Below are positions 2,265-31,071 of a DNA stretch of 64,000 nt, one piece after another (positions within the stretch are counted from its first letter, which is position 1; every line of letters begins with the position of its first letter). Origin of the DNA: an uncultured Bacteroides sp. (GTDB taxonomy: Bacteria; Bacillota; Clostridia; Christensenellales; CAG-917). The stretch spans positions 41,254 to 105,253 of the forward strand of contig CAZXUW010000002.1 of the NCBI GenBank assembly GCA_964644355.1, given 5' to 3'. The translations under genes were made by a program, and so were the position numbers. The notes beneath the pieces are model-generated. The model was given only the letters and a program-made list of their open reading frames with translations, searched no databases and was not told the origin of the DNA.

Positions 2265-2867
2265 ATGAAAGTTGCTATTATTTTGAATTGCGGAACGCCC
2301 ATCAAACGCAAAATCAAGGGCGATAAAATTGTATGCTGTGACGGCGGTTATGCCGTGTGTCCCGTTGAGCCTGACGTCATTTTGGGTGACTTCGACTCTC
2401 TTGAAAAGCCAACGGATATTGCAATCCCCATCGTCGAGCACGACACCCACAAGGACGCAAGCGACGGCGAGCTTGCCGTATACTACGCAAAGGAAGTGCT
2501 TGGTGCAGACGAGATTGTGTTGTATGGCGTTACGGGCGGTCGCATAGATCACATGCTTTGCAATCTTGCTATCATGCGACTTGCAAAGACGCTAGGAATG
2601 AAGGTCAAAGCGGAGGACGACGGGATTGACATATACTTTGCCGACGGTGACTTGGACGTGCAAACGCAAAAGGGTGAGATTATCTCCATTCTCCCCTACG
2701 GCGAAAACGCACTTGTCACAAACTCTCAAAATCTCGAATACCCCCTTGACAATCTCCTTCTCAAAACCTCAGATTCAAGAGGATTGAGCAACGTATCTTT
2801 GGGCGGAAAAGTACACATATCAGTGGCACTCGGCTCTGTATTTTTGTTCCGTCACATAAAATTTTGA
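2265..2867 (+). CDS. thiN: thiamine diphosphokinase
   Basis: 200 aa with GDFDS, KDASDGELA and GGRIDH motifs and the C-terminal thiamine-binding beta domain pattern of TPK. Confidence 0.85.
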   Translation: MKVAIILNCGTPIKRKIKGDKIVCCDGGYAVCPVEPDVILGDFDSLEKPTDIAIPIVEHDTHKDASDGELAVYYAKEVLGADEIVLYGVTGGRIDHMLCNLAIMRLAKTLGMKVKAEDDGIDIYFADGDLDVQTQKGEIISILPYGENALVTNSQNLEYPLDNLLLKTSDSRGLSNVSLGGKVHISVALGSVFLFRHIKF

Positions 2868-2970
2868 AAATTTATAAAAATTTTTCCAAAAATACCCAAT
2901 AAAAACGATGTTGCGTTTGTATATATTATGAAAAACAAAAATAATTCATCGTTTTTTACCTTTCTAAATC

Positions 2971-2996
2971 AAAAGCCTCGGTCATCCGAGGCTTTT
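2971..2996. terminator. bidirectional intrinsic terminator between convergent thiN and thiT
   Basis: AAAAGCCTCGG-tcat-CCGAGGCTTTT hairpin flanked by A and T runs. Confidence 0.65.
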
Positions 2997-3016
2997 AATT
3001 TTGCTTTGATTGCTAT

Positions 3017-3790
3017 TTATTTTTCACTTTCGTCATCCTCACTGTTTTGCTGATTTTGGATGATTTGCAAATCTATCTCGTCAAGGTCGTCCTCTTGCGA
3101 ATACTCTTGCTCAATACCACTTGCTTTTTCAATGTTTGAAGACTTTTGCATCGCATTTCTAAAGCTTTTTGAGGCAAAGAGCATACCTCCGCAAGCAAGG
3201 GCAATTGCCATATCCACAAGCGTAAAGGCGTTGTACGCAAAGCTGTATGCGGTGACGGTGGCGTATGAATTTAGGTCAGCATAGCTTGCAAAGGCAAACA
3301 CTCCCGTGCATACGTGGCATAGATAACGCAAGATGACCGAGGTCACTCCGCCCAGCATAAAGGCAAGCACCTTTTTGTTTTTGAAAACACCCTTTTCCAC
3401 AAATATACCGCTCACGCCTATAAGTCCAAAAGCGAGCGGATAGTCCAGCAAAAACTGCATTGGATGGATTATGTACGGATCTTGAAGTGCTTGGAGAATG
3501 CCATAAATCACGCAAACCACAACTCCACGCCTTGTACCGAACATACAGCAATAAATCATGAGTGGCAACAGGCTTGCAAAAGTTACCGAACCGCCCTGCG
3601 GAAGTCTAAATATGCGAGCATATGAAAGTGCAAAAGATAGAGCTATTGAGATTGCACCGTACACGATAGTTTTTGTGTTGTCAAAGTGTTTTTTGTTGCC
3701 AAGGATAAAAAATGCGACAAGAAGTACACTTGCGATCACCCCCGACACGATCAATCCGATGAGATTTATCGACATGTCTTCGTTTCCCAT
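3017..3790 (-). CDS. thiT: thiamine transporter ThiT (ECF S-component type)
   Basis: 257-aa polytopic membrane protein sitting directly behind a TPP riboswitch. AGGAGG lies 8 nt upstream of the ATG. It has an acidic C-terminal tail. Confidence 0.75.
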   Translation of the reverse strand: MGNEDMSINLIGLIVSGVIASVLLVAFFILGNKKHFDNTKTIVYGAISIALSFALSYARIFRLPQGGSVTFASLLPLMIYCCMFGTRRGVVVCVIYGILQALQDPYIIHPMQFLLDYPLAFGLIGVSGIFVEKGVFKNKKVLAFMLGGVTSVILRYLCHVCTGVFAFASYADLNSYATVTAYSFAYNAFTLVDMAIALACGGMLFASKSFRNAMQKSSNIEKASGIEQEYSQEDDLDEIDLQIIQNQQNSEDDESEK

Positions 3791-3796
3791 AAAAAA

Positions 3797-3945
3797 AGCC
3801 TCCTGTGCCTAGGAGAACTTGAAAAGGGATTATGCACAACAACTGCAACGAACACACACGCTACGTTGCAAAATTTTGCTTCCTTACGCGAGGATTATCT
3901 CACAAGTTAAAGGGTATCATCTCAGCTTCACAGCACCCCTAGCAT
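3797..3945 (-). promoter_or_regulatory. TPP (THI-box) riboswitch with an SD-sequestering expression platform
   Basis: The minus strand reads GCUAGGGGUGC..GCUGAGA..ACCCUUUAAC..GAGAUAAUCCUCGCGUAAGGAA (aptamer about 3879-3943). Downstream, CUCCU-aggcac-AGGAG pairs with the thiT SD. Confidence 0.8.
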
Positions 3946-4078
3946 CTTTATTGTACACGCCATCGTTTACGCTGTCAACGACTTTTTTGATTTTGCGACA
4001 AAGTGTTGATTTTGCTTTTGCTTGACTTAATATGCAATTAGTATTATATTTTTGTTATCAACCAAGGAGAGATAATAT

Positions 4079-4738
4079 ATGAAATTCAAAAAGCCTGAAC
4101 TTAAGCTCCTCAAAGAGTTTAAGGCGTTTATCACCAAAGGCAACGTTGTCGATCTTGCCGTTGGTATGATTGTCGGTGCAGCATTCACTGCAATCGTAAC
4201 CGCACTTGTGAACAACATCTTCAAACCGCTCATCGGTGCAATCCCAATGGGTGACATCGAAGGTCTCATCACAATGCTCGTGGCAAAAAATGCCGACGGT
4301 TTGACGCTTGCACAGTGCCAAGCTCAAGGCGTGGAATTTGTGACTGACCTCACAAAATCCGTATATATCGACTGGGGTGCATTCTTGATGGCTATCATCA
4401 ACTTCTTTATCACCGCACTTGTGCTGTTTGCACTCGTAAAACTCATCAATATGGTGCGCGGCGGATTTACAGGGCTCAAGAGAGACACGCAATTCCTCGC
4501 ATCTCTCACCGATGAAGAAAAAGCAACCATCAAAGGCAGGACCGCAACAAAGAAAGAGTTGCGTGCAATCAAAGCCACTCGTGATGCAAAGCAAGCCGAA
4601 GAAGAAGCAAAAGCTCTTGCAATCGCAGAGGCAAACAGACCGGAAACCGCAGAGGAATTGCTCAGCCAAATCCGTGATTTGCTCAAAGCACAACAAGCCG
4701 ACAAGGCTCAAGCATTGCTTGAGGACAACAAGGACTAA
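4079..4738 (+). CDS. mscL: large-conductance mechanosensitive channel, long form
   Basis: N-terminus KEFKAFITKGNVVDLAVGMIVGAAFTAIV is the canonical MscL TM1. At 219 aa it has a longer loop and a Lys/Glu/Ala-rich C-terminal tail. RBS is AAGGAG. Confidence 0.9.
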   Translation: MKFKKPELKLLKEFKAFITKGNVVDLAVGMIVGAAFTAIVTALVNNIFKPLIGAIPMGDIEGLITMLVAKNADGLTLAQCQAQGVEFVTDLTKSVYIDWGAFLMAIINFFITALVLFALVKLINMVRGGFTGLKRDTQFLASLTDEEKATIKGRTATKKELRAIKATRDAKQAEEEAKALAIAEANRPETAEELLSQIRDLLKAQQADKAQALLEDNKD

Positions 4739-4757
4739 ACTTGATTTATCACTCAAA

Positions 4758-4786
4758 ATCCACCGACGTGCTCGGTGGATTTTTTT
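4758..4786 (+). terminator. intrinsic terminator of mscL
   Basis: ATCCACCGA-cgtgc-TCGGTGGAT (9-bp stem) followed by TTTTTT. Confidence 0.85.
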
Positions 4787-4845
4787 GTGCGGCAAAAGTT
4801 TTTGCAAGAGTCAACATATCTAGCTTTGAGTGCAAAAAGTGGATA

Positions 4846-4874
4846 TTGCAACCAAACAAATTATGATATATAAT
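4846..4874 (+). promoter_or_regulatory. putative sigma-A promoter of the DUF4062-like gene
   Basis: TTGCAA, a 17-nt spacer, then TATAAT. This implies a ~130-nt leader before ATG 5013. Confidence 0.5.
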
Positions 4875-5012
4875 TGATATGGAATAATATTTTCTCAAAA
4901 CAAAAAAATGCTGTAAAATATACATAGAATTCCCAAAACGAGCATTGACTCCACGTTGATTCGACGTATGTGGCATTGTATACTTTTATTGTAAAAACCA
5001 AACGGAGGAAAA

Positions 5013-8000
5013 ATGAAAAAAACTCTTACATCTTTTAGACATGCCACAGCTTTTATATCCTCAACTTTTGCAGATATGAAGGAGGAGCGAAATTTGATGA
5101 CCTACAACGTTCTGCCCCGCATAAAAAAATGGGCGTTTGATAGAGGCATCATTTTTGACGTTGTCGATTTGAGATGGGGCATAAACGACGAGCAAGCGAA
5201 CGACTTGCACCACACAATAAAACTCTGCCTAAAAAACGTGAAGGACTCCGATCCTATTTTTATTTGCTTCCTTGGCGAAAGATACGGTTGGATCCCTCCC
5301 TTTGAGGATTTCAATCAAAGCATGTTTGACAAAAACATCGACCGCTACAAAAACCTCTCCGCAACCGAGCTTGAAATCGTTGAGGCACTTGAGGGCGCCA
5401 TACTTGGCTCAACACCAAAATCATGCATGTTTTTGATGCGTGAAAGTCTGTCACTTAAGGACGTTCCCGATGATATAAGGCAAGTGTATAAAGATGATGC
5501 GAACTCCCATCGTCTGCAAAGTTTGAAGAACTCCATAAAGGAGAGGGATGGGATTTTTTCACAGGACTATTCGGCAAAATTCAACCACAAAAACGACGAG
5601 TATTATCTTGATGATTTTGTGTCAAACGGCACGCCTCTTGAGGACGTCATATTTGAAAATTTGACAAAGCTCTTGACTGAAAAATATGACGTGAGCGATG
5701 AGGACGTCACCTTCTTTGACGACGTACTTACACGTCAGCGTTTCCATCAAAAAGAGCTTATGCGGTACCCTATGGATACACGCCATCAAAGCACGCTCAA
5801 CGAGTTTTTGGACACGACTTTGGACTTTTCCATAACGCCGATAGGCACACCTCACAACAGTGCGATTTTCAGCCAAATTTCGCATTTCATAGAGGCTCAA
5901 AAGCAAGTGAAAAATCAAGACGTAATTTACAGATTTTGGGGTTTAAGTATGCAAATCAACAGCGTAAACGACCTAATCTGCTCACTTGCATATGAATTTA
6001 GCAATGACAAACAACACTTGAATCACCCCATAGAATCTTTGCTTTATTTGAAAAATCATCTTGAAAACGCAACAAGAAAAACACTGCTAGTGATAGCCGG
6101 CATACCTTACAAAATCATGCCCGATTTACGCAATATCGTCTTGGGACTTAAGTGGACAAAGATGCTTGTGTTTTATGATACGGGAGATTTTACACCCGTC
6201 GAATTGAGCATTGACAACGATGACATTTCCTTTAGAAAGCTTGCAAAATTTATGTTTGAGAAAAAGGCAAAATTCCTGACCGAAGCACAGCTAGACAAGG
6301 TGTTGCAGGCAGCCCAAAGAGATTATTCAACACTCAAAATAATCGCTGATTATCTATGCAATTTTGCTCAATACGAGACGCTTGATAGCTTGATAGATTC
6401 CCTTGCAAATCTTGACGTTTCAAACATAGCAAAGTTGTATATAGCAAGTCTTTGCAAGGTGCAAAACGCTCACGTGCTAAATGGCATTATGGGTGACGTT
6501 ATTGAGATTTTGTGCAACTCTCCGCTCCCCCTTTCACAGCAAGATATTGTGGATAGCATTTGCCTTGAAAGAGGTGTGGTCAATCCCTCAAAAATTTCAC
6601 AAATCGACAAGGAAGTTGCATTCTCATTGCGTTTTGCGTCAAGCCTAATTGACGAGTACAATTCTCGCTTCAAAATAAACGACGAGATTGTAAAGACGCT
6701 TGTTATGTTTGATGAGGACACGACGCAAGAAGCGCCCTATTGCTTTATCCCCAAAGAGAGCAATCTCATACTGTCATTGAGGCAAGTGTATATCAATAGA
6801 CTCAAGGACAAAAATGCGCCGTTCAATGAATGTGACGCACACAATCTGCTTGAAATAATCAAGGATTATTCGGACGGGGATCTCAAGCAGGATTTTACCA
6901 TAAGCGTTCTATATGACACAAAAACGTTCTACAAGCTTGCAAAAGCACTTGGCAAAAATCACCTTGTGGATCTATTCAAAACTTTCACAATGCAGACGCT
7001 GGGTATGGACGTTGACTCCTACTTTGTTGGAGAGATGAACCGCATCTGGCACAACGAAAACGACTCTTTGGACTTTGCAAACGCAATTATGCAAGAGAAG
7101 ATTTTTTCCACCGCAAAAACACTACACTCCGACAATATATTTATGCAATACTACCTTGCCGTGCAGAAAATCAATGCGGACTCGCTTGAGAGTGCAGAGC
7201 ATTTTGAAAAGGCTCTAGCACTTGCGCTGTCGGTCGATGGCGGATGCCACAAGATTGCACTCCCAGCCTCTTTGGACGTCTCAAAAGGCAACTGCTGTGC
7301 GTATACTATATTTGATCCATACGCAAAATCATACGCAAACTTTTACGGCGTTTGCACGGACGGTTTTTTGATTATCCTAAACGTGTGGACGGGTGAAATG
7401 GTGACTGCCTTTGCCCTCCCGCGTGACCTTGGCAATATCGCATGCGTTTTCTATCAAGAACACACCATTCACATCGTATATGAAAAAGGGGTTATTTGCT
7501 TTGTCAATCTATGGTCAAAGCAGATGAATATGTATAGAATTTTGCCGGAAAACATAGACGTAAACACCTTTGAAAACTACTATTCAAACGGTTGCCAAGT
7601 GGCTGTTGCAGACAATAGACGCATTGTTTTATTTGATGGTGCAAGAGTTTCAAACGACATAACGTTTGCTCCAAACATGAGCGTGCTCTCGGCATACGGA
7701 CTCAACGCAAACAAGGGCAAATTCACAAAAGTGTGCATAATCGCAAAGGATGAAAATGACAATCATTTCCTCTATAGCGTGGATATGCAAGCGCATAAAA
7801 TCATAGATCAAAGCTATTTCCCAAGCAAGCAAGTTGAATCAAGCGTGCAAGATGAAAATGCAAACGACCTCTATATTCACTTTTCAGACGGCACGTCCTG
7901 TGTTGCGATGTTTGATGAGAATGGCAATTTTGACGTATATAATACGCCCGACAGGTGCATGTACAGCCTAAAAGACGTTTACAAAATCACGCAAGACGGT

Positions 8001-8129
8001 GACGATATCAAATATAACGGCAAGCAAATTGCAAGCAACAAAGGTGTGAAATGCTGTTTTTCATCACGTAGCTTGATTGCCGTCCTGACAAGTGACAACA
8101 CTCTCTACTGCATCGACAACGGCTATTGA
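5013..8129 (+). CDS. DUF4062-like N-terminal domain / degenerate STAND-like helical core / beta-propeller-like C-terminus
   Basis: 1038-aa ORF with GGAGG RBS. N-terminal motifs are FISSTFADMKEERN, VDLRWGI, FLGERYGWIPP and SATELEIVEAL. There is no GK[ST] P-loop. The C-terminal ~280 aa shows about 7 strand-block repeats. Confidence 0.8.
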   Translation: MKKTLTSFRHATAFISSTFADMKEERNLMTYNVLPRIKKWAFDRGIIFDVVDLRWGINDEQANDLHHTIKLCLKNVKDSDPIFICFLGERYGWIPPFEDFNQSMFDKNIDRYKNLSATELEIVEALEGAILGSTPKSCMFLMRESLSLKDVPDDIRQVYKDDANSHRLQSLKNSIKERDGIFSQDYSAKFNHKNDEYYLDDFVSNGTPLEDVIFENLTKLLTEKYDVSDEDVTFFDDVLTRQRFHQKELMRYPMDTRHQSTLNEFLDTTLDFSITPIGTPHNSAIFSQISHFIEAQKQVKNQDVIYRFWGLSMQINSVNDLICSLAYEFSNDKQHLNHPIESLLYLKNHLENATRKTLLVIAGIPYKIMPDLRNIVLGLKWTKMLVFYDTGDFTPVELSIDNDDISFRKLAKFMFEKKAKFLTEAQLDKVLQAAQRDYSTLKIIADYLCNFAQYETLDSLIDSLANLDVSNIAKLYIASLCKVQNAHVLNGIMGDVIEILCNSPLPLSQQDIVDSICLERGVVNPSKISQIDKEVAFSLRFASSLIDEYNSRFKINDEIVKTLVMFDEDTTQEAPYCFIPKESNLILSLRQVYINRLKDKNAPFNECDAHNLLEIIKDYSDGDLKQDFTISVLYDTKTFYKLAKALGKNHLVDLFKTFTMQTLGMDVDSYFVGEMNRIWHNENDSLDFANAIMQEKIFSTAKTLHSDNIFMQYYLAVQKINADSLESAEHFEKALALALSVDGGCHKIALPASLDVSKGNCCAYTIFDPYAKSYANFYGVCTDGFLIILNVWTGEMVTAFALPRDLGNIACVFYQEHTIHIVYEKGVICFVNLWSKQMNMYRILPENIDVNTFENYYSNGCQVAVADNRRIVLFDGARVSNDITFAPNMSVLSAYGLNANKGKFTKVCIIAKDENDNHFLYSVDMQAHKIIDQSYFPSKQVESSVQDENANDLYIHFSDGTSCVAMFDENGNFDVYNTPDRCMYSLKDVYKITQDGDDIKYNGKQIASNKGVKCCFSSRSLIAVLTSDNTLYCIDNGY

Positions 8130-8160
8130 TAAGCATATATAACAATCAAAAAGCATTTTT

Positions 8161-8187
8161 AGGCAATCGCAAAAAAAGCGGTTGCCT
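8161..8187 (+). terminator. stem-loop downstream of the DUF4062-like gene (no U tract)
   Basis: AGGCAATCGC-aaaaaaa-GCGGTTGCCT, a 10-bp stem with one G-U pair. It lacks a T run on either strand, so terminator function is uncertain. Confidence 0.35.
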
Positions 8188-8205
8188 TAAAAAATCATTA
8201 GATTA

Positions 8206-8214
8206 TGCTATAAT
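8206..8214 (+). promoter_or_regulatory. extended -10 element (TGCTATAAT) for the antiporter gene
   Basis: TGnTATAAT consensus match. Its position argues against the ORF-track start at 8218. Confidence 0.45.
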
Positions 8215-8298
8215 CTAATGAACACTATTGACTTTGCATTAAAAACATGTTACTCTTGTATCGATTTTTACATCAATTTCTATAGAGAGGAAATATAT

Positions 8299-9417
8299 AT
8301 GTTCATTTCAACACTATCTATGATGGAAGGTCACAGCATGGCTGGCTACATCATCCTGCTTGCACTTGGCATTTTGCTTGTCATCAAAGGCGGAGATTGG
8401 TTTGTTGATGCCGCAAGCTGGATTGCGGAAGTGTCCGGCATCCCATCCTTTATCATCGGTGCAACCATCGTGAGCGTTGCAACCACTCTGCCCGAAATTT
8501 TGGTGTCTAGCATATCCGCAGCACAAGGGCAAGCGAGCATGGCAATCGGCAATGCAGTGGGATCTGTCAACTGCAACATCGCTCTGATTATGGCAACTTC
8601 CATTGTGTTTACCGCACCAATCTTCAACCGCAAGAATTACGCAGTGAAAATGTGCATACTTCTTGGCACAATCGCACTTTTGTGGGGCTTGAGCTCAAAC
8701 GGAGAATTTACTTGGTGGAACGCAGTTTTGGTGCTTGCAATGTTTGTCATCTTCCTTGTTGAAAACATCTTGAGTGCAAAAAAGCATGCCAACCTTCTTG
8801 AAGCCGAGCAAGCAAACATTGTTAAGGAGCAAAAGGAGTACGGCAACGGCATTCTCCGCTACTTCTTTGACAAGAAAGAGGCTCAAAAAATCGTGCTTAA
8901 AAAAACAGGTATGGTGATTGAACGCAAAGATATTGCCAAAAACATCATTCTCTTTGTTGTCGGTGCAGGTGCAATCTTCTGCGGAGCACAGCTTATGAGT
9001 GACAACGGTGCTGAATTTGCTCGTGCACTCAATGTGCCGGAAGGCATCATTGGCGTCACGATTTTGGCAGTGGGCACATCCCTTCCGGAATTTGTGACGG
9101 CAATCACGGCTATCATCAAGAAAAAATCCGACCTGTCTGTTGGCAACATCATCGGTGCAAACATCATTGACCTTTCTTTGATTTTGCCACTTTGCACGTT
9201 TATCCAATTTGGCAAAACAGGCACATTCCTCCCAGTGGACGCTCAATCACTTACAATTGATATGCCATTCTGCGTTGCCGTATGCGGATTCTCTCTCATC
9301 CCTGCATTTATCATGGGCAAGTTCAAAAAATGGCAAGGAGCAATCATGCTCGCAGGATATGTCACCTACGTTGTGCTTCTTGTTCTCAACACAATCGGCA
9401 CAATCTCAATCTTCTAA
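8299..9417 (+). CDS. CaCA-family cation/Ca2+ antiporter (YrbG-like)
   Basis: Two alpha-repeat signatures (GNAVGSVNCNIAL and GNIIGANIIDLSL) in a roughly 10-TM protein. Start set at ATG 8299 (AGAGAGGAAA upstream); ATG 8338 is an alternative. Confidence 0.85.
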   Translation: MFISTLSMMEGHSMAGYIILLALGILLVIKGGDWFVDAASWIAEVSGIPSFIIGATIVSVATTLPEILVSSISAAQGQASMAIGNAVGSVNCNIALIMATSIVFTAPIFNRKNYAVKMCILLGTIALLWGLSSNGEFTWWNAVLVLAMFVIFLVENILSAKKHANLLEAEQANIVKEQKEYGNGILRYFFDKKEAQKIVLKKTGMVIERKDIAKNIILFVVGAGAIFCGAQLMSDNGAEFARALNVPEGIIGVTILAVGTSLPEFVTAITAIIKKKSDLSVGNIIGANIIDLSLILPLCTFIQFGKTGTFLPVDAQSLTIDMPFCVAVCGFSLIPAFIMGKFKKWQGAIMLAGYVTYVVLLVLNTIGTISIF

Positions 9418-9438
9418 AAACCTATTATAAACATAAAA

Positions 9439-9465
9439 AACGGACTCAAACGAGTTCGTTTTTTT
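9439..9465 (+). terminator. intrinsic terminator of the antiporter gene
   Basis: AACGGACTC-aaac-GAGTTCGTT followed by TTTTT. Confidence 0.75.
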
Positions 9466-9776
9466 ATATCGTTTTTGCAAATAATACCGTTTGCTTCCAC
9501 GCAATTCCGATTGCGGTGACTATGCACATGCTTTGCAATTGCCGTGATTACCATATTCATTTGCTACAAAAAAAGCACCCCAAATCACGTAAAACCCTTA
9601 AAAAACCGCACTGAAAATCCCACGAAATCTACGTGATATAACGTTGAAATCACGCTAATATATCTCAATAAACGTACGATAAAAACGGCGTAAATTTACG
9701 CAAATACAATAATTATCTATCACAAAACAAATATCAAAAGTCTTAAAAAACCATATATAATCCACGCAAAAACCAC

Positions 9777-9808
9777 GCAAAAACGGCACCGAAATCGGTG
9801 CCGTTTTG
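9777..9808 (-). terminator. intrinsic terminator ending the protease-opp-GLUG gene block
   Basis: Perfect 9-bp stem ACGGCACCG-aaat-CGGTGCCGT, with a U run on the minus-strand transcript (and TTTT on plus). Confidence 0.8.
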
Positions 9809-9820
9809 GATTGCTTGAGA

Positions 9821-12800
9821 TTATTCTCTTATCAAGATATAGTCTGATAGGTCAACGGATTCAAGGATGAATGCTTTGTCTCCTGCCTCGTTCACAAACT
9901 CGTTTCTATTGCCTGTTGGCGTGGTGATCACAACTTTGGATGCACTGCGTGCATACGTGCTGTAATTTGTGAAGATGAGATAATCATATCCGCTTCCGTC
10001 CACTCTTTCAAAATAGCCATAGTAACGGACTGACGGTTCTGCATCATCCTCATCGGTTGTGTACAAATTGCTGATTGTGTACATTGCAAGTGCTTCAGGA
10101 TTCTTGCCCGTGCCGTCAAACGTATATACTTGTGAATGACGCTTGTCATTTGTCCAGTTTCCTGTCAAATCGTCAAACTCTGTCATATAGCTGTAGTTCC
10201 ATAGATCATTGTCAAAGTCGTTGTCATAGTTGAACCAGTTGAGGTGTTGAGAGATGACAAACAAGCCATCTTTGATTTGCACAACGTAAAGATCCATGCT
10301 CTCGTTGACTGTCCAGACAAGATACTCGTTGTCAACAAGCGTGAAGCTTGCCGTGAAATTGTCAGACTTGTCGTTGATGACGAGCGGAACAACGCCCTCA
10401 AGCACTTTGTCATAGTTCATTGTGCCGATGACAACGTGATTGTCAAAGGATGTCTCGAGTGCCCATTTGCCAGTGAATTGTGTCTTTTCACCAAGAACGT
10501 GTTGTGTTCCGTTGAGTGTCAAAACGTAATTTCTTGAGCCGACTTCGCCTACGATATTGATTTCACCGACCTTTGTCTCTCCACTGTACACGTCAACACT
10601 TCCGTCGTCGTTGAGCTTGTAGATATAATTTGTCGGCGTGCCATTGAGTGTCGCTGTAAGTGTACCCTCTATAGCACCTCTACCATCAAAATAGAACACG
10701 TTGCCATCCTTGTCGAGGAAGGTCTTTTTGCCAAACTCATCCTTTCTTATAAGCTCAACATCCTTTCCGCTCTCGGAAATCTTGATGACGTTGCGCCCTT
10801 CGTCCATTGAGATGTAGTAGATGTTGCCCTCGTATGTGAAACTGCCATCGAGCGAGAACTCGTCTAGACGATAATTGACCGTTGTGCCGTTTATCGCAAT
10901 CGTACCATTGAGCGACACGTCACCCAAAATCGTATAAACTCCGTAGCCGTTGAAGTCCACTGCGTTGAATGTGCCGTCTGCGCTTATCCATTCACCCTTG
11001 TACTCGTCAACTCTGTACAATCTAACGTTGATCATATCCGAGATTGTCAAGGAGTAAATACTGCCTTGCAACCTTCCACTATTCTCATTGTATGCCACGC
11101 TTCCAAAATACTCGCCTTGATAGAACAACACGATGCTTCCTTCAATCAGCATATCAGGAGCATACGTAAGGTCGTAGATTTCATTGCGGACTCTGCCGTT
11201 GGTGGTGGTCACAAAGCGAATTTGCGCATTGCCGTAGCCGTCTTTGCTGATGCCTTTAAGCTCAATGATAATGCCATTATCGGCTGTCATCCACAAGCCG
11301 TAATTGCCATCAACACCGCCATAGACGTATTGAGAATTGCCTGAAACGATGTTGACAAAGCCATCGTTTATGGAAGCAACCGCACCGTTGTTCAACACAA
11401 GTTTGCCTTGATCGATTGTGTAAGTACCCTCTTGTGAGTCAATAAGCTTGTTGTACATCTCACCGCCCGAGATAACGTATCCGTAGTGAGTGTATTTCCA
11501 GTTGCCAGCACCGTCAAATTCCATATACTTTTGCGACAATGAGGAGATTTCCCATTTGCCGCGATATGCATCGGTCAACGTGACGTTGTTGGAGTCTATC
11601 GTTTCAACGACGCCCTTGTTGACAGAACCGCCAATTTCGCTTCCGTCAACGGAAATGCTGATTGTTTGTCCGCTTATTGTATAAGTAAATTCGGTTGGAA
11701 CACCACTCTCATAAACTCTGCCGTTGCCGTTTGCAAAGAACTCGTAAATGATTGTATCTGCTCCATCTTTATAATAGTAACTGCCAATAATTGTGTTTTC
11801 TGCCTTAAAAACCTTGAGCGGTTTTTCTCTTGAGACAAGCTCGATAACTTCGTTTTGTTCAATATCCGAATAGAGTCCGCCATAGAGGTCGAATCCATAG
11901 GATGCTTTGACAGCTTTGTATTCATAGCTTTGATAATTTGCGATATCTCCTTCGCCATAGTAGCGAGCAAATTTCGCATTGTCAAAGACAACATACTCAC
12001 CGTTGTAAACAAATGAACCCTTGTGTGAACCGAATCTATCGACGCACTCATACGTTCCGTCAACGTTGAGGATAAGTTCAACCGTATCGTTGTTGCTATC
12101 TTCATAATCGGAGTCAGGCAAAACGTAATAGGTGCCTGCAACGTCGTTATTGTTTGCAAAACCGACGTAGAGAGTGATATCTCTCATCGGAATGAATCCG
12201 CAAGATACCGGCACTTTGAGATCCTTGTCGAAGAAGTAGCCGTAAGACACGTAGCCGTCTGTGCTGTATATAACGGACGGAAGACCTTGCAAATTGGACT
12301 CCTCAGAGAAGAAATACACGTTATACCAATAGTTCATAGACTCGTATTGGTCGGCAAATGTTGCAGAATAATTTTTGTTACCGTCAACGTCAGTCCTTCC
12401 GCCAAAGTCGAGAGTTACGGTATATTGATAATGTTGCTCGATTTGGTTATCGTCATCCGTTGTGCTGTTTACACCGTTTACAACAGGATATTTGCCGTCC
12501 TCGAAAATCCAGTCTATTTCATGCCAACCAAGAACGCTCTTGATTGTTGCGGTCTTTGTGAAGTCAAGAGTTTCGCTCTTGCCTCCCTCAACGTAATGGC
12601 AGTTGAACACACCTGCATTCTTTGCACTGTACATGCCGTCTTCTAGCTTCTCAACTCTTGCAACTATCTCACCTGTGTGAGCGTAAGATTCGCCAGCCAC
12701 TGCATATGCAGAGATAGAACCCGTTGCAAAGCTGTCTGCGATGACACTGTCAAGCTGAGCCATACCCACAAGACCGCCTGCATAAGCATGGCAATACGTC

Positions 12801-14029
12801 TCTGTAGATTCAGAAGTGTAGGACATGTGAGATTGTGCGTGAATATCACAAAGTGAATAACATGCCGACATCGAGGTGTAGTTGCTGAGCCAACCAACTA
12901 TTCCGCCCGCGTGGAAAGCACCCGAGATTTTGCCGGATGTATAGCAGTTTGTAAGTGTGGTTGCGATTGTGTCGTCGTCTGAATAGACGTAACCTGCAAT
13001 ACCGCCCGCTGCGTAAGTCGTGCCGTTGCTACAACCAATGTCGATATTGTTTGCCGAGCAGTAGCTGACTTTTGAATAGTATGGATATTGGAAGGAGCGT
13101 TGAAGTCCTATAATACCGCCTGCGTATGAGAAGTAGTTTACGTCACCCATGACGTCAAGCGTGCCGTTGATTGCTTCGCAAAGCACCAAATTCGCACCAA
13201 ATCCTTGACCTACAAAGGAACCACAGGTAACTGTTGTGCCATTGTTTACGGCAGTGATGGTATAATCGGACAATTTCAAATTGAATATCGTTCCGCCTGT
13301 AAAGCCGAGGGTATCGTAATAGTTCGACTGAACAATACCAAACAAACCTACATAATCTTTTCCGTTGGAATTGATTTTGAAGTTTGAAATGGTGTGTCCG
13401 CCACCATTGAGATAACCGCCGAAGAATGCATAATTGTTGTTGCCGTCACCGATTATTTCAAGCTCGTTGCCTCTCAAATCAATGTCGTTTTCAAGCACAT
13501 AGTAGCCAAGAACGCTCATTGTGGAATTTTCAGCACCCGAGTTGATCACTTCAGCCATCTTGATAAGGTCGATAGGCTTTGAAATGATAAACGGGTTATC
13601 GGACGCACCTGTTCCCGTGCTGAGAAGTTGAGATTCCGCCTTTGCTATTCCCTCAATGCTAATAGTCGTATTCTTTGAAACGGTTGTCTCGCAAGAATAG
13701 GTGTACGTCTCCTCGTCATATTCGAGAGTCTTTTCCCTAGTGTTAACTTTTACGATAGGTTCACCCTCATAAAAGACGTCCACTGTAAACTCAAACATGA
13801 CAGACTCGCCCTTATTCACCTTTGTGGGATTTGAAGAAGAATAATGCACGCCGTCCACTTCCTCATAAGTTATTGTGCACTCCTCAACCTCACCGGATGG
13901 ATCACCTGAACCGCCACCGTCAGGGGAGACCGGATCGGTGTCATCTTTAGGATCGCATGCACAAAAGATTATTGACAGCGACAGTATCAATATAAGAGTT
14001 GCTATCACAAAAAATCTGTTCTTTTTCAT
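9821..14029 (-). CDS. large surface protein with GLUG-motif repeats
   Basis: Signal peptide ends in IIFCAC. Repeated GGIIGL, GGIAGY, GGIVGW and GGLVGM blocks are spaced like GLUG motifs, followed by a long beta-rich C-terminus. ATG 14029 has GGAG 6 nt upstream; the ORF-track start is a TTG. Confidence 0.8.
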   Translation of the reverse strand: MKKNRFFVIATLILILSLSIIFCACDPKDDTDPVSPDGGGSGDPSGEVEECTITYEEVDGVHYSSSNPTKVNKGESVMFEFTVDVFYEGEPIVKVNTREKTLEYDEETYTYSCETTVSKNTTISIEGIAKAESQLLSTGTGASDNPFIISKPIDLIKMAEVINSGAENSTMSVLGYYVLENDIDLRGNELEIIGDGNNNYAFFGGYLNGGGHTISNFKINSNGKDYVGLFGIVQSNYYDTLGFTGGTIFNLKLSDYTITAVNNGTTVTCGSFVGQGFGANLVLCEAINGTLDVMGDVNYFSYAGGIIGLQRSFQYPYYSKVSYCSANNIDIGCSNGTTYAAGGIAGYVYSDDDTIATTLTNCYTSGKISGAFHAGGIVGWLSNYTSMSACYSLCDIHAQSHMSYTSESTETYCHAYAGGLVGMAQLDSVIADSFATGSISAYAVAGESYAHTGEIVARVEKLEDGMYSAKNAGVFNCHYVEGGKSETLDFTKTATIKSVLGWHEIDWIFEDGKYPVVNGVNSTTDDDNQIEQHYQYTVTLDFGGRTDVDGNKNYSATFADQYESMNYWYNVYFFSEESNLQGLPSVIYSTDGYVSYGYFFDKDLKVPVSCGFIPMRDITLYVGFANNNDVAGTYYVLPDSDYEDSNNDTVELILNVDGTYECVDRFGSHKGSFVYNGEYVVFDNAKFARYYGEGDIANYQSYEYKAVKASYGFDLYGGLYSDIEQNEVIELVSREKPLKVFKAENTIIGSYYYKDGADTIIYEFFANGNGRVYESGVPTEFTYTISGQTISISVDGSEIGGSVNKGVVETIDSNNVTLTDAYRGKWEISSLSQKYMEFDGAGNWKYTHYGYVISGGEMYNKLIDSQEGTYTIDQGKLVLNNGAVASINDGFVNIVSGNSQYVYGGVDGNYGLWMTADNGIIIELKGISKDGYGNAQIRFVTTTNGRVRNEIYDLTYAPDMLIEGSIVLFYQGEYFGSVAYNENSGRLQGSIYSLTISDMINVRLYRVDEYKGEWISADGTFNAVDFNGYGVYTILGDVSLNGTIAINGTTVNYRLDEFSLDGSFTYEGNIYYISMDEGRNVIKISESGKDVELIRKDEFGKKTFLDKDGNVFYFDGRGAIEGTLTATLNGTPTNYIYKLNDDGSVDVYSGETKVGEINIVGEVGSRNYVLTLNGTQHVLGEKTQFTGKWALETSFDNHVVIGTMNYDKVLEGVVPLVINDKSDNFTASFTLVDNEYLVWTVNESMDLYVVQIKDGLFVISQHLNWFNYDNDFDNDLWNYSYMTEFDDLTGNWTNDKRHSQVYTFDGTGKNPEALAMYTISNLYTTDEDDAEPSVRYYGYFERVDGSGYDYLIFTNYSTYARSASKVVITTPTGNRNEFVNEAGDKAFILESVDLSDYILIRE

Positions 14030-14048
14030 AACGTTCTCCAAATAATAT

Positions 14049-23174: not shown

Positions 23175-26100
23175 TTATTCACAATCCGCATCATTATCGC
23201 TATCTTGCTTTTTTGAACCAAGCTTATTCTGCTTTTTGAGCACCAATAGGACTGCCACAACAATGATTGCAACGCCCACGATAGGCACAACAACGTACAC
23301 TGCGATCATTGCGTCTGCGGATGAGTCACCATTGTTTGTATCGTTGGAGTCAATCTCACCGCTATTTCCACCGCTTGATTGATTGCCATCGTTTCCGCCT
23401 TCGCCCTCGATTGACGAGCTTTCGCTGACGTAAATTCTAACAATAAACTCAATGCCCATTTCGGTATCTTCAAAGCTTACCGTTTGCATGTAAGATTGGA
23501 GCGGACCATCTGTCAAAAGCTTCAAGTTTGCGCTGTCCACAACGTCTGTTGAGCCGTCTGTGTATATGCGGTTGACAACAATGCCGGTTGGATCGAACGT
23601 CTCGCCTGCAATGTATTCTTTCTTGTAGCTTCCGTCCACTGCAAGGTGCTGTTTGATGTCAACTTTGATGCCGTATGACTTCTTGATTGCACGCATCGTA
23701 AGCTCGGTCTTGTTGAGCTTTTCAACAAGTGTATCGTCAATAAACTTGAGTTGCTCTGCATCTTTGATGTTGCCGTAAAGACGTCTTGCCTCTTGCACGA
23801 TATTCGAGAAGTTTTCAACGTCTTTCTTATAAGATGTTGTATCGCCGGCTTCCGCCTTTGTTTGCCACTCTTTGAGCAAAGCATCCGTGTATGCCTCAAA
23901 CATCTCCATTTGAGCAAGGAAGCTTGTCGTTGTCTCGTCTTTGACCGTTTGAGTCTTGTTGACGGTGCCAAAATATCTTGAATACACGTAGTTGTTGTAA
24001 CCAACGCCGTTGATCGGATGATAGATTGTCAACGGGCTTGTTTGACCGACAAGCGTGGTGAAATACACAAACAACTCATTGAAGTTTGAATAATAATATG
24101 CATTGATTGACGGCTCTGCCATGTAGTTGCCGTATTCTCCTGCAATTTCTTCAACTTCGACTTTGTATACGGTTTCAAGTGTTGGAGCGTTCAAAGAATT
24201 GAATGTATATTCCGTGATTCCGCTCTCATAGAATGCACTGTCACCGATGTTGTTCAACGAGTACGGCATCACAACGTGTGTCACACCAAGCTCGTCATCA
24301 GCCTTGTCGTTGCCTATGCCCGCAAATGCGTATGCGTCTACTCTTACTGTATTATCAATAATTGTATATACCTTATTATCAATAACTTTGGTTGCCGGAT
24401 AAAGGATAAGCTCATAACCGCCGTTTGCCACGTTTCTGTAAAGCACTCCGTCGTTCACAAAGAACACATTGTTGCCCTCTGCAATGGTGATACTCTCAAG
24501 CTTTGAGGTATATGCAAATGCGCCATAGCCGAGCAAATTGAGTGAGAGAGGCAATTCAATGGTCGTGATGTCAGAGCCATAGAATGCCATAATGCCGATT
24601 TCTTCAACAACCGAAAGATTGATGGATTTGATGCCACCCTTCTCGTTTGCAAGCATAAAGGCTCCGTCACCGATTGAAATTGCCGATGACAAATCTATGT
24701 CTCCAAGTGCGTTGCAGTTGTAGAATGCATAACCTGCAATCTCCTCAATCGTGGACAAGTCGATTGTCTTGAGCTTGCCACAATTCATAAACGCATACTC
24801 GCCGATTTGCTTTACTCCGCCCAAAACAACCTCTTCGAGGTTGGAGCAACCGGAGAAGCAGAATTCGTCAATCTCTTTGATGCCACTGCCAAGCACAACT
24901 TTCTTCAATTTGCCAAGTCCCATAAAGGTGTATTGACCAATTGTTGTTGCCTTATCACCGAACACAACGGTGGAAACTGCAGATTTTGCAAACACGGCGT
25001 CACCGACTTCCTTAACTGCAGGAAGTGTGATGGAATCAAGAGCCGTTGTGTTCATAAACACGTAATCACCAAGCGTGCTCAAGCTGTCCGTAAACGTGAT
25101 AGATGCAAGCTGGATGCAATCGGAGAATGCATAGTCGCCTACGCTTTCAACACCGCTCAAATCAATGCTTGAGAGCGAAGTCTTTGCAAATGCGTAATCT
25201 CCAATGCTCTTGACGGAAGTCGGAAGTGTGATTGCAATCAAGTTGGTGTAGCTGAACGTATCTTTCTTTATTTCAGTGATGCTGTTACCTTGAATTTCGA
25301 TTTTGGCAAGCTTAGATTGCTTGAAAGCACCAACTCCGATATTTGTCACCGTTTCCGGTATAACGATAGACGTTACGCTTGAATTTGCAAACGCATAGTC
25401 ATATATGCTCGTCACCGTTTCGGGTATTGTTACAGATGTAACGGAAGCATCCAAAACTGCAAGGAGCGTTGTCTTATCTTTGTTGTAAAGCACTCCGCCC
25501 TCGATAACGTATTGCGACTCGTCGCTCAACTTCACGTTCAAGCCCGAGAGCAATCCGCTTGCAAACACGATTTGTTCATAATCGAAGGATGCAGGGAGAG
25601 TTATGCTTGTAAGTGACGTTGCACCTGCAAAGATGTCAACACCGATTTCAGTCAAACCGTTTGGAAGTTTGATTGTGGTGAGTTTAGTCTTTTCAAATGC
25701 CTTGTCGCCGATCTTTATAACGTTGCAATCGTCCGCAAAAGTGATCTTGCTCAAACCGCTGTTGCTGAATGCTCTCTCCTCAATGACGAAGTTTTCACCG
25801 CTTACGCCGTTTATCGTCACGCTATTGAGATTCTTACAATTGCTGAAGGCATATGCACCGATAACAGAGTTGTTCAAGGTCACATTCTTCAAAGACTTGC
25901 AACCCTCAAACATATTATCACCGATTGCGGTAAATTGCCCCGTCAACACTTCATTGATGGAAGTACAATTCTTGAACACACCATAGCCTGCAACTTGCAT
26001 ACCGGTGAGGTCGATGCTTGTGAGTGACGTGCAGCCCTCAAATGCGGTCTCGTATGCAGAACCGATTGCCTTCATATTCTTGATTTTGCTAAGAGATGAG

Positions 26101-29100
26101 CAATTCTTGAATGAATTGACAGCAACCGTGATAACCTTGACGTTTGTCAAATCAAGCAATTCAAGCGAACTACAGCCCTCAAATGCGGAACGATAGACAA
26201 GTTTCAAGTCCGCATCGGGGATTTCTTCTTGCACTTTGCTCACAAGATACACTCTCTCAAGAGCAGAGCAGTTTCTGAAAGCACCCTCGTAGATGTTGAT
26301 TACGGTCTTTGGAATGATGACTTCTTCCATTGTGGAATTGTCTTTGAATGCATCCTCACCGATATACATAATCATTTCATCATCGGGGATGTCAACACTC
26401 TTATCTTTACCTCTATAATGCGTGAGCGTATAGCCGGACACGACAAACGGATCGAGAACGTTGATTCTGATAGTTGCTCTAAAGCTTGAATCCGTGCCGT
26501 CCTCTCTAAGCAAAATAGCCTCGACGCTTGCCTTGCCCTTCTTGATGAGGTCAAGTTTTCCGTTTTGATCAACGGACACGATTGAGGAGTTGGTGGACTC
26601 CCATCTAAGCTTGACTTTGCTTTGCGGATAATACCACGGATCTGTTTTTACGCTAAGCGTAATATCCTGATCGGGATAGAGTGAAACGTTGTCGCTTGCA
26701 GACAATCTATCATCGTTGTTGACAATTGTCTTGAAGGAAATGGACGGCAAATCCAACTTTCTTTCAACGTCGCTCACGTTCACTTTGATCTTCTTATATT
26801 CACCGTTGCCGGATTTAACCTGAATGTTTGTGCTACCCTTGGACAAACCGACGATTTCACCGTTCTTGACGTCTGCGATATTCTTGTTTTCGGAATCCCA
26901 AGTGAAGTTTGAGATATTTGCATCTCCGCTATACACCAATGACACTTTGTGTGTTTGATAGATGTCGAGATTGATTTCGCTCTCGCCTTCTGCAAGCTCA
27001 AACGTATCCGGAGTTGCGTTTCCTTCTGCCTTTTTCAAGTCGATGCGGTAAACGGAATGGTTCAACGCATAGTCGTCAAATTGCACGTAAAGGTTATCGC
27101 CGTACTGCTCGTAAATATTCGTTATTTCAATAGATATTGTATTTGTACTGTTCTTCACAAAGTTATAGAACGGCACAACGTAATCCGTGACTTGCTTAAG
27201 CTCGTTTGCATTGCTGTCAAAGTAGCAAAGCAATGCCGCTTGTGCATAGTGGTTGTCGTATACATCCATATCGAGATATATACGTTGCTTTTGTTTATTG
27301 TCCTCTTTGTAGTCTTGATATCTAACTCTAACTTCCCTAAGAGATGGAGCCTCATAGTCACAGTAGAACGTGAAAGAGTACGTATCGTCGGGCGTTGTTC
27401 TGTTATCATCGCCGAAGTCGCAATAGAATTCAAAATCCATGCGATATTTTCCGTTTGAAACCATGTTGTATTCAAGCGGATCGATTTCAAACTTCAAATA
27501 GCCCGGAACGGTATTTCCGCCGCCGGAATATGCCTTATTTACACGATAAGCAGTGTTTTCATAAAGCACTTCACCTGTTGCCTCGTCCACTAGGCAGTAA
27601 TCCACCTTTCTTGCACCACGCATAAGTCCAAGGTAAAGACCTCTGAATTGATAAGTTGCCAAATAGTTTTCAACATTATCTTCACCATAGAATTGGTCGA
27701 AGCAAGAAATTGCGTTGTGCTCCATGGTTGTATACACTCTGTCGGCATTCTCGTCTTGCAAGTATGCAAAAGAGCCCATCGGCATGGAGAAACGATCGTT
27801 GTAGTATTTTGTATATGGTTGAGTTGCCCAGCTACTTGCTTGAGGCTTATCCTCGTCGTCGATAGAGGAATCTGCCAATGCCTCGTCAATGTAGTAAGCA
27901 TCGTTGATATGCACTTTTTCGTACTTACCCTCGTCATTTATTTGATAAGTGTAGTCCAAAATAGGAACTTTTGCCCAATCGCCATAGAAGCCGAGGAATG
28001 GCAGATTGAGGTTGCATTGTCCGCTTGTTTTGCTGACAAGATTGACAAAGCCCTCAACGTACATACCGTTTCTGAAACTATCGTCGATATATTTCTTTTC
28101 CGCATCGGAAAGCGTAAATCTAACCGTGATTTCTGCATCTGCACCGCTCTCAACCGTGAGGATATTTTCGCTTATGTTTGCACCCACACCGCTCACACTG
28201 AAAATCGGCTTCACGTCATCGAGAATATATGCTTGCTCTGCAACGGCAAGTTTGTTGCTTGCAATTCTTTCCGTCATGAAAATTGGATTGAATTCAAATG
28301 ACAAACTGCTCTCACCGAAGTTCTTGATTTTGAAAGTGACATCATAAGTACCAGTTTTATTTGGATCGTCACCAAGGTTCGCTTTTGGACGATAGTCGAT
28401 AGAAGCATCGGTGGTATAAAGATACGCATTTGTCGAGATAGCGTTTGCAAGACTTCCCAAGCCTGCACCCTGCTTTCTCGGAGAATACGGAAGGGTGTCA
28501 CGATCCATGACGATGGTTGCCGTGCTCATGACAAGCTGATTGATGCGTTGTGTAAGTTCCGTCTGTGACAATTCTTCACGAGCTTTGAGATAGCCTCTAA
28601 CGATGGACACGACACCTGCCATGTTCGGAGATGCCATACTTGTACCGCTCTGCTCGCCATAGCCACCGGGAACTGCAGAGGTGATTTCTCCGCCGTGTGC
28701 AGTGATTTCCGGCTTAAGCTTCAAGTCAGGAGTGACACCCCAAGAGGAGAACTCGCTCATAAACGGACCTGCAGACAAGCTCTTGTCAACGACAATCTTG
28801 CCCGTTCTGCTGTGTTGAGACGCATAAGTCGCAAGCACTTCACCGACTTCCATATTTATACAGCATGACGGAATTGGATCTTCCACTTCACCAAGTGCCA
28901 TTCTCACGACACCTGAAACGTTGTTGTAAACGATGATGCCGATTGCACCCGCTTTCTTTGCATTTTCAACCTTCTCTTTGAAGGTGATACCGCCACGCTT
29001 GACAAGTGCGATATTGCCTTTGACCTTATTCTTTACGCCGGAGTTGTTGAAGTCCGTAACTCTGCCCGTGCCGGGAATGGATACGTAGGTAAATTCTGCT

Positions 29101-30647: not shown

Positions 30648-30660
30648 TTCTAACCTCCTT

Positions 30661-30683
30661 CGACAAATCCACCCGATTTGTCG
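30661..30683 (-). promoter_or_regulatory. 5-prime UTR hairpin abutting the protease SD
   Basis: CGACAAATC-caccc-GATTTGTCG, a perfect 9-bp stem ending next to the AAGGAGG. Confidence 0.4.
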
Positions 30684-31071
30684 AACGTTTTGCTGTTGTC
30701 TATTTTTTTTGCTGAGTGAGAGTTTCACGCTCACGCACGCTCTCGCACGCATAATATGCGACTATATCATTTAGAATGCATTTTACCATGAAAAAAAATG
30801 CATGTCAAATTTATATGCACACATTTTACTTTTTAATGTTATTTTATATATAATTAAAAACGCATAAATGCATAAATATTCATTTTTTATACTTTCTATA
30901 CAATTGTTTGAAAAAACGCTTTTGAGAAAATAAAAATCCAAAATTCAAAGTCTTGTGACTTCTCTTTCCGGATTTTGAAATTGCATATATTTTTCTATTG
31001 TTTTTGACTATATTTTTTCAGCGAAAAAACGGCAATTTTTCACCGCTTTTTAATCACTTTTTCACCGCATT

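Follow-up and report, generated by a model that had tools for sequence, protein, structure and literature searches.

The DNA discussed here is a stretch of 64,000 nucleotides ("the window") from an uncultured Bacteroides sp. (GTDB lineage Bacteria; Bacillota; Clostridia; Christensenellales; CAG-917; assembly GCA_964644355.1, contig CAZXUW010000002.1, positions 41,254 to 105,253 of the forward strand), and our subject is the solitary gene at 5013-8129. We predict that its product of 1038 amino acids (aa) is a single-gene, NLR-like sensor of the abortive-infection type, a reading that we consider reasonably probable. The protein appears to combine a NIR (DUF4062) head, a NACHT-derived core that has lost the key residues of its NTPase motifs, and a seven-bladed beta-propeller. 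The original prediction, which was made from the DNA letters alone, had already proposed a single-gene immune or conflict sensor; the bioinformatic tests described below support that proposal, whereas the defence-island context was not found.

The gene starts with ATG, has a GGAGG motif at 5004-5008, and has about 30 full-length homologues (1020-1057 aa). In comparisons with its orthologues in three related lineages (L082, L086, and L087), the ratio of nonsynonymous to synonymous substitution rates (dN/dS) for the whole gene is 0.13-0.15.

The N-terminus is the part that can be named with most ease. All four motifs originally quoted from it are present, namely FISSTFADMKEERN (aa 14-27), VDLRWGI (51-57), FLGERYGWIPP (86-96), and SATELEIVEAL (116-126), and the proposed membership of DUF4062 holds, with Pfam PF13271 matching aa 14-121 well over its curated cutoff (E=3.6e-12, 46.7 bits vs. 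24.7). The same match is present in 22 of the 22 aligned family members. Using phmmer, the head aligns over aa 8-187 with a domain of human TEP1 (PDB 11gz_A, E=1.2e-19), and when the family profile was searched against the sequences of the PDB this TEP1 NIR domain was the sole match (E=2.4e-29). These alignments make the head a homologue of an effector whose NADase activity has been proven by experiment.

The relevant experiments are recent. Osinski et al. (bioRxiv 10.64898/2026.05.01.722283) identified DUF4062 as a TIR-like NADase yielding ADP-ribose and nicotinamide, defined the portal-activated defence system Swarozyc, and found human TEP1 to be an NADase that requires E1008. Ibarra-Chavez et al. 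(bioRxiv 10.64898/2026.06.25.731849) described the Evangelion family, a plasmid-borne, single-gene defence with a NIR NADase, while Le Mouellic et al. (bioRxiv 10.64898/2026.09.04.749371) renamed the domain NIR and presented PsAvs2, Vulcan, and Vesta as NIR anti-phage systems. In each case, NIR hydrolyses NAD+ and gives abortive defence (Swarozyc, 10.64898/2026.05.01.722283; Evangelion, 10.64898/2026.06.25.731849; PsAvs2, Vulcan, and Vesta, 10.64898/2026.09.04.749371), and NIR-NLR-like proteins have been noted as a class in the 2026 preprints. Swarozyc, Evangelion, the NIR-bearing Avs2, Vulcan, and Vesta therefore put out of date the earlier remark that no characterised defence system is built on this N-terminal domain. 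The literature already contains DUF4062 as an anti-phage NADase, NLR-like proteins included; the novelty here is a propeller family with an anciently inactivated, conserved nucleotide-binding domain (NBD).

The predicted catalytic residue deserves some care, as two glutamates lie close together in the SATELEI motif. With the TEP1 numbering register set by R908, R954, and R976 (chain offset 893), E1008, the second Glu of TEMEV, falls opposite E121, the second Glu of SATELEI, in the phmmer alignment to 11gz_A. E121 is invariant among 36 diverse NIR domains and E119 varies, and E119 was rejected as the catalytic residue. The equivalent glutamates in characterised proteins are TEP1 E1008, KpSwz E97, and PsAvs2 E108. 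R90, the counterpart of TEP1 R976, does not vary across the alignment of 22 family members, while TEP1 R908 is replaced by Ala20. The NIR domain is also the best-conserved region of the protein (mean identity 67.5% vs. 33-38% elsewhere) and has the lowest dN/dS of all its domains (0.05-0.08). A model of the domain on its own (predicted local distance difference test score, pLDDT, 90.8) has a beta-alpha-beta-alpha order, a BB loop that contains a short helix, and, ahead of the last helix, a beta-hairpin (aa 182-204); both of the latter features have been described for the TEP1 domain. From all this we infer that the predicted NIR NADase would hydrolyse NAD+.

The rest of the chain was approached through structure prediction. 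An AlphaFold2 model based on 22 family members (pLDDT 86.4, predicted template modelling score 0.80) begins with a head of alpha/beta type (aa 8-226), continues with an NBD-like domain, also alpha/beta (270-400), and then with helical and winged-helix domains (401-742), and ends in 28 beta-strands (746-1035). Searched against the PDB with Foldseek, it returned full-length Apaf-1 (3j2t_A, E=1.9e-20, 890 columns; 3sfz) and Drosophila Dark at the top of the list, the E-values across these matches running from 1.9e-20 to 2.5e-15, followed by many WD40 propellers. As modelled, the entire chain is Apaf-1-like in fold, which bears out the three-part layout first read from the translation, and the 28 strands form seven four-stranded blades where a propeller of about seven blocks had been suspected. 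The strands of the propeller are modelled with a pLDDT of about 90 and reach a Foldseek TMt of 0.5-0.58 to WD40 domains such as 1gxr_A (0.57) and 6qtu_A. No Pfam WD40 (PF00400) match was found in the protein, and other family members give just weak matches to miscellaneous propeller models. Among distant members the propeller is the most divergent region (mean identity 33%).

For the core, sequence profiles say more than single-domain models. Pfam NACHT, NB-ARC, and AAA_16 do not match the protein, NACHT, NB-ARC, and WD40 are likewise without a match among the 21 aligned relatives, and NPHP3_N is matched weakly (E=0.0012) by two of the 22 family members; membership of the STAND class is therefore argued from fold and from profile-profile comparison. 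Its more distant database matches are NIR-NACHT-TPR/WD40 proteins, with alignments that extend over roughly half the query. A profile of 78 NIR-associated NACHT modules, with NIR removed, finds basal family members at 1e-13 to 1e-9 (hmmsearch), and the middle of the family, again without NIR, aligns by hhalign with the 78 NIR-NACHT NBDs over 295 columns (probability 98.3%, E=2.5e-14), an alignment that also covers the NACHT-associated HD/WH region. The order of strands and helices in aa 270-400 of the AlphaFold2 model suits a P-loop fold. These comparisons indicate that the central module is homologous to the NACHT of NIR-NACHT proteins.

It is important not to take this homology for enzymatic competence. 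In both the MAFFT and hhalign alignments, the Walker A segment of the NIR-NACHT proteins, G-E-S-G-S-G-K-S, lies opposite G278-T-P-H-N-S-A284-I285, a position that falls in the loop of the model between strand 273-279 and helix 286-297. The Walker A Lys/Ser have become A284/I285 and the Walker B Asp has become A362; there is no Lys at all in aa 270-299, and the sensor-1 region departs from the NACHT consensus. In structure and descent the module derives from the NACHT clade, but it has neither the Walker A nor the Walker B motif that defines the clade, and the fitting name for it is pseudo-NTPase STAND, not NACHT NTPase. The STAND-like module of the original prediction has thus stood as regards fold and homology, and a working NTPase, to go by the sequence, has not, the Walker motifs being gone. 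With a dN/dS of 0.14-0.25, the pseudo-NBD is under purifying selection, which speaks for a maintained scaffold and not for debris. A precedent for a dead ATPase inside a working defence STAND would be KpAvs8, a functional capsid-sensing Avs whose degenerate Walker A and B motifs were described as "suggesting a lack of ATPase activity" (PMC13581612).

The relatives allow the loss to be followed. The Walker A Lys is gone in 26 of the 30 relatives checked and kept in P0026, P0027, P0030, and P0031 only, short sister proteins that keep both GNGKT and IIDGI[ND]E. The basal propeller-bearing members (P0023-25 and P0028-29) have lost the Lys and kept the Walker B Asp, and in the main clade (P0001-P0021), to which the window protein belongs, both are gone. 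Motif loss thus looks stepwise across the family, and the steps, from GK[ST] with Asp, through Lys lost and Asp kept, to both lost, appear to be preserved in living relatives. The short sister proteins are 746-768 aa long and 27-45% identical to the query over 19-54% of its length; they have a helical C-terminus without a propeller and, with a P-loop that is active by motif, make a useful comparator.

As to distribution, the family is confined to a narrow set of gut or rumen Clostridia-type contigs, and a survey of 185,579 species-representative genomes found one full-length member, in a metagenome-assembled genome of the Christensenellaceae (50% identity). In the three related lineages, the orthologue occupies the same site between mscL and the Na/Ca exchanger gene, and in somewhat more distant relatives that share the S58-S33-TPK-ThiT-MscL synteny the exchanger gene comes immediately after mscL. 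These empty sites mark the gene as a lineage-specific insertion. Between orthologues, the protein is 62-68% identical and the products of the flanking genes are 85-93% identical. Against L082 and L086, the synonymous divergence (dS) of the gene is 1.5-2.0 vs. 0.6-0.9 for the flanks, and since values above 1 are near saturation the direction of this difference alone is reliable; against L087, it is lower than that of the flanks (0.30 vs. 0.63-0.76). Taken at the sequence level, this points to allele exchange at the locus.

The L087 allele (4967-8082, Logan SRR17704083) lies at the same mscL/Na-Ca exchanger locus and is 92% identical at the DNA level. A 1-bp deletion at nt 977 splits the gene of this lineage into open reading frames (ORFs) of 335 and 693 aa, and both fragments are found on contigs of several assemblies (including contigs of 350 and 87 kb), so that the frameshift looks like a circulating pseudogenised allele. 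Base composition adds little. The gene had been thought more AT-rich than its neighbours, and its GC content is indeed lower (0.418; window, 0.439; flanking genes, 0.44-0.476); the difference is marginal, and GC at third codon positions (GC3, 0.486) sits within the host range of 0.38-0.56. Recent foreign origin by base composition was rejected, as GC is just 2 points under the window mean and GC3 is typical.

The idea that the gene works without partners is also borne out: in the five homologue neighbourhoods that we compared, distant members sit in unrelated, mostly housekeeping contexts and no neighbour is kept. AAA_14/DUF4143, ATPase_2/DUF234, EndoU toxin, Fic, and ISL3 genes lie nearby on occasion; enrichment for defence islands is not seen, nor are the homologues embedded in metabolic operons with a conserved partner. 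In the window itself, the gene lies, as had been noted, between a housekeeping channel gene, mscL, on one side and the Na/Ca antiporter gene on the other. We also observed, about 1.5 kb downstream of the exchanger gene in relatives without the NIR gene, an AIPR gene (abortive infection phage resistance, PF10592), at 9686-11524 in L094 and 9686-11536 in L096, which is absent in L095. The mscL/exchanger neighbourhood may be a site of variable content at which defence genes can settle.

How might such a protein work? The function proposed here draws on the domain homologies, predicted fold, motif states, purifying selection, and accessory status set out above, while its trigger, oligomerisation, NADase activity, and defence phenotype are modelled on the characterised NIR systems and on Apaf-1/Avs logic. 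At rest, the protein would be monomeric and, as in Apaf-1, autoinhibited by its propeller and helical domains. This restraint would be lifted once the propeller bound a protein or ligand that comes from the phage or is induced by infection, whereupon the NACHT-derived core would assemble into oligomers. With the Walker A Lys/Ser and the Walker B Asp gone, assembly would probably be driven by ligand alone, without a switch based on NTP binding or hydrolysis. Oligomerisation would cluster the N-terminal NIR domains and activate the NADase (E121), and the resulting depletion of NAD+ would halt growth of the infected cell ahead of phage release. The strongest form of the proposal, an NLR/STAND receptor that has dispensed with the nucleotide switch and fires a TEP1-type NADase by ligand-driven oligomerisation of a pseudo-NTPase scaffold, is one that we put forward tentatively and hold to be possible but doubtful.

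Several observations weigh against an abortive-infection sensor, and readers should keep them in mind. Searched against the PDB with Foldseek, the NIR-only model found nothing at E≤1e-3, only weak matches of a generic Rossmann/flavodoxin type; the top relevant match was the CMP N-glycosidase MilB (E=0.01, probability 0.82), no TIR chain was among the top 50, and the TEP1 chain 11gz was absent from the matches. Since these matches are weak, the fold assignment of the head relies on its sequence homology to the solved TEP1 domain. Conserved residues are not a guarantee of activity either, as full-length human NWD1, NWD2, and NPHP3 have no NADase activity in vitro despite having them (10.64898/2026.05.01.722283), so the conserved Glu is to be read with that caution. 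Loss of the Walker motifs might instead mean a scaffold that does not oligomerise. Gene-wide positive selection was not detected, the propeller (dN/dS 0.10-0.20) included, and positive selection acting across the propeller was accordingly rejected.

Context and distribution supply the remaining points of this kind. The family is tiny and its body is never seen with another effector, so that the modular swapping that is a hallmark of defence NLRs is absent. The search behind this statement (phmmer with aa 230-1038 against 1.84 billion representatives) returned 16 proteins, all of them NIR-bearing relatives or fragments; effector swapping on this scaffold was rejected, as the NIR-less body retrieves its own family only. 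In tblastn searches, plasmids held no family member and two distant NIR-domain matches, and phages gave no match. The gene keeps a single chromosomal locus across species-level divergence, as one with a lineage-specific housekeeping role might also do, and its neighbours in the window (ThiT, TPK, MscL, and the Na/Ca exchanger) are of the housekeeping kind. PADLOC, run on the large ORFs of the 64-kb window, found no defence match, the gene lies outside any defence island, and the defence-island candidate was rejected. For the protein itself, PADLOC-DB v2.0.0, a release that predates the NIR papers, gave a chance-level AbiEi match only (E=0.085), and neither NCBIfam nor, outside DUF4062, Pfam gave a significant match.

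Some of these observations would also suit a different protein, a non-immune and lineage-specific regulated NADase or signalling protein whose propeller senses an endogenous cue (stress, the envelope, or metabolic state) and whose NIR domain tunes NAD(P)+. Such a protein would be comparable to the STAND regulators MalT and AfsR and to the unexplained animal roles of TEP1 and NWD1; housekeeping surroundings without known defence genes, a locus shared by several species, purifying selection on every domain, and restriction to one narrow group of gut/rumen contigs are all in its favour. We nevertheless consider it unlikely. A gene that is missing from the syntenic block in relatives and frameshifted elsewhere can be dispensed with, its divergence is about threefold faster than that of its flanks and its dS is incongruent with theirs, it has no conserved metabolic partner, and every bacterial NIR protein tested so far has turned out to be anti-phage.

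A second alternative accepts the enzyme and changes its product: NIR would make a signalling nucleotide (cyclic or isomeric ADP-ribose) instead of depleting NAD+, and an unlinked effector would execute the response. NIR is TIR-like, and TIR domains elsewhere produce signals. Thoeris and plant TIR domains make cyclic or isomeric ADP-ribose signals. Since the characterised NIR domains yield ADP-ribose and nicotinamide only, and no context contains a conserved neighbouring effector gene, we regard this as quite improbable. That the gene is a decaying relic on its way to a pseudogene, its NTPase motifs lost and its protein no longer activatable, is suggested by the degenerate Walker A, Walker B, and sensor-1 regions, the frameshifted allele in circulation, and the very small size of the family, and is highly improbable in view of the full-length ORFs kept in about 30 clusters down to 25% identity, the low dN/dS both overall and in the pseudo-NBD, a conserved promoter and invariant catalytic residues, the age of a motif loss common to the whole main clade, and KpAvs8, which works with degenerate motifs.

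What would an abortive-infection sensor of this kind mean for the field? Provided that the protein is active, the NIR/DUF4062 anti-phage repertoire would be extended by a propeller sensor on a Walker-less, NACHT-derived scaffold, and human TEP1, NWD1, and NWD2 would have a compact bacterial counterpart. It would also offer a clean test of effector switching by an NLR-type scaffold without nucleotide, so far hinted at for KpAvs8 only. Should the receptor truly have lost its nucleotide switch, the NBD of an NLR can act as a mere assembly platform, and TEP1, NWD1, and NWD2, the animal NIR-NACHT-WD40 proteins, gain in this family a minimal model from bacteria. Genes of this sort can stand alone among housekeeping genes and outside defence islands, where they are missed by 2023-era defence-finder models.

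The features discussed here are collected in Table 1, and the regulatory ones require some comment. The promoter block GTGGATATTGCAAC...TATATAAT is kept upstream of the L082, L086, and L087 orthologues, which are themselves 62-68% identical in protein. Upstream of it, the mscL terminator hairpin (4755-4783; -16.5 kcal/mol, z=-3.6) is followed by a U-run and kept at occupied loci, and past the stop codon the hairpin at 8156-8193 (-17.4 kcal/mol, z=-6.3) is kept in L087 and not in L082 or L086; by their z-scores both fold far more stably than shuffled controls. The promoter, the mscL terminator, and the downstream hairpin that had been read by eye are therefore real enough, with the reservation that the last has no U-tail, and together they support the view that the gene is monocistronic.

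Table 1. Coordinates of the gene, its predicted domains and motifs, and flanking elements in the 64,000-nucleotide window
Feature	Position	Strand	Basis
Complete gene, predicted NIR/pseudo-NACHT/beta-propeller protein, 1038 aa	5013..8129	+	ORF list, translation
NIR (DUF4062), predicted TIR-like NADase effector domain, aa 8-226	5034..5690	+	Pfam, phmmer, domain-only model
E121 codon, predicted catalytic glutamate (second Glu of SATELEI)	5373..5375	+	alignment with TEP1 E1008
Predicted NACHT-derived nucleotide-binding-domain fold, pseudo-NTPase, aa 270-400	5820..6212	+	hhalign, model
Degenerate Walker A, G278-T-P-H-N-S-A284-I285 for G-x-S-G-x-G-K-S/T	5844..5867	+	MAFFT, hhalign
Degenerate Walker B, L358-L-V-I-A362-G-I-P for hhhhD[GA]L	6084..6107	+	MAFFT, hhalign
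Predicted helical, winged-helix, and Apaf-1-like helical domains, aa 401-742	6213..7238	+	model, hhalign, Foldseek
Predicted seven-bladed WD40-like beta-propeller, presumed sensor, aa 746-1035	7248..8117	+	model, Foldseek
Sigma-70-type promoter, TTGCAA-17-TATAAT	4846..4874	+	motif scan, 10/12 positions
mscL intrinsic terminator, upstream boundary of the inserted gene	4755..4790	+	RNA fold, U-run
Hairpin 27 nt past the stop codon, possible terminator without U-tail	8156..8193	+	RNA fold
ThiT thiamine transporter gene	3017-3790	-	

Close to the gene, a few further elements are worth recording. At 8196-8220, just upstream of the exchanger promoter, there is a perfect palindrome with 11-bp arms, CATTAGATTAT-GCT-ATAATCTAATG (-9.5 kcal/mol, z=-6.7). 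It is kept at four of the four gene-bearing loci (the window, L082, L086, and L087) despite diverged surroundings, and is missing from the empty-site loci L093 and L094. It might serve as an operator or a weak terminator, or mark where the inserted segment ends on its 3' side. The distance from the -10 box to the start codon is about 138 nt in the window (4875-5012) and in L087, compared with about 30 nt in L082 and L086, and the extra leader holds a second promoter-like site, TTGATT-17-TATACT (4956-4984). A search of 2800-9900 with Rfam found a thiamine pyrophosphate (TPP) riboswitch only, leaving the long 5' leader without a known RNA element. The riboswitch (RF00059, 3864-3950 on the reverse strand) lies upstream of the ThiT gene and scores 52.7 bits (E=2e-8; gathering score 54.3).

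Elsewhere in the window, the MscL homologue (4079-4738, forward strand) is unusually long at 219 aa, a length kept in relatives; its Pfam match spreads 97 model positions over aa 10-168, pointing to some 60 inserted aa and an extended C-terminus. Two large ORFs on the reverse strand, at 9821-14041 (1406 aa, with GLUG and DUF5640 matches) and 23175-30752 (2525 aa), probably encode cell-surface proteins. In the near-identical locus L081, oligopeptide ABC transporter genes follow the GLUG gene and correspond to the window ORFs between the two large ones. An ABC-ATPase/FtsX fusion at 61640-63970 (reverse strand) matches PADLOC mad3 (E=1.2e-23), and this looks like generic ABC-ATPase similarity and not like a defence system.

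Finally, it is useful to place the protein among known systems. With Swarozyc, Evangelion (Eva01), and Vulcan, which deplete NAD+ and abort infection, it shares a solitary gene that encodes a NIR head and a C-terminal region, here a presumed one, for sensing. Those proteins, however, carry short helical AUX or HEAT repeats and have neither a STAND module nor a propeller, whereas both are present in the model of the window protein. An alkaline phosphatase partner, the other arrangement within the Swarozyc/Evangelion/Vulcan/Vesta group, is not present next to the gene, and there was no Staphylococcus plasmid, and hence no Eva01 homologue, among the plasmid matches at E≤1e-3. By its architecture, the protein is not Swarozyc, Evangelion, Vulcan, or Vesta.

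Similarity of mechanism leads further afield. Like Apaf-1 and Dark, the protein would consist of a head that delivers the effector function (there by recruitment), an NBD-HD-WHD-HD2 series, and a propeller that autoinhibits until its ligand binds; Apaf-1 differs in its CARD head and second propeller, depends on the binding and exchange of (d)ATP, and is only about 11-12% identical. KpAvs8, of the PD-lambda-4 family, shares degenerate ATPase motifs in a functional anti-phage STAND (PMC13581612), but it belongs to another STAND clade, with another effector and a TPR-like sensor of capsid protein, and no relationship to the window family was detected.

The closest counterparts are those that share both the head and the overall plan. 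In PsAvs2 and the NIR-NLR-like proteins, a NIR NADase head, a central STAND module, and a C-terminal repeat sensor are likewise found in one polypeptide, the catalytic Glu is conserved, and NAD+ depletion with abortive infection would be the expected outcome. The sensor of PsAvs2 is of the TPR type and recognises terminase, whereas that of the window protein is the predicted seven-bladed propeller; unlike NIR-Avs2, moreover, the window protein is without the Walker A Lys/Ser and Walker B Asp, and it matches no Avs model of PADLOC. TEP1, NWD1, and NWD2 likewise run from NIR through a NACHT-type NBD and a helical domain to a WD40-like propeller; compared with them, the window protein is bacterial and much shorter, with a single propeller, degenerate NTPase motifs, and neither TROVE nor vWA. 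Our prediction, in short, is of a protein that would work like a NIR-tipped Avs/NLR and is laid out like TEP1 and NWD1.

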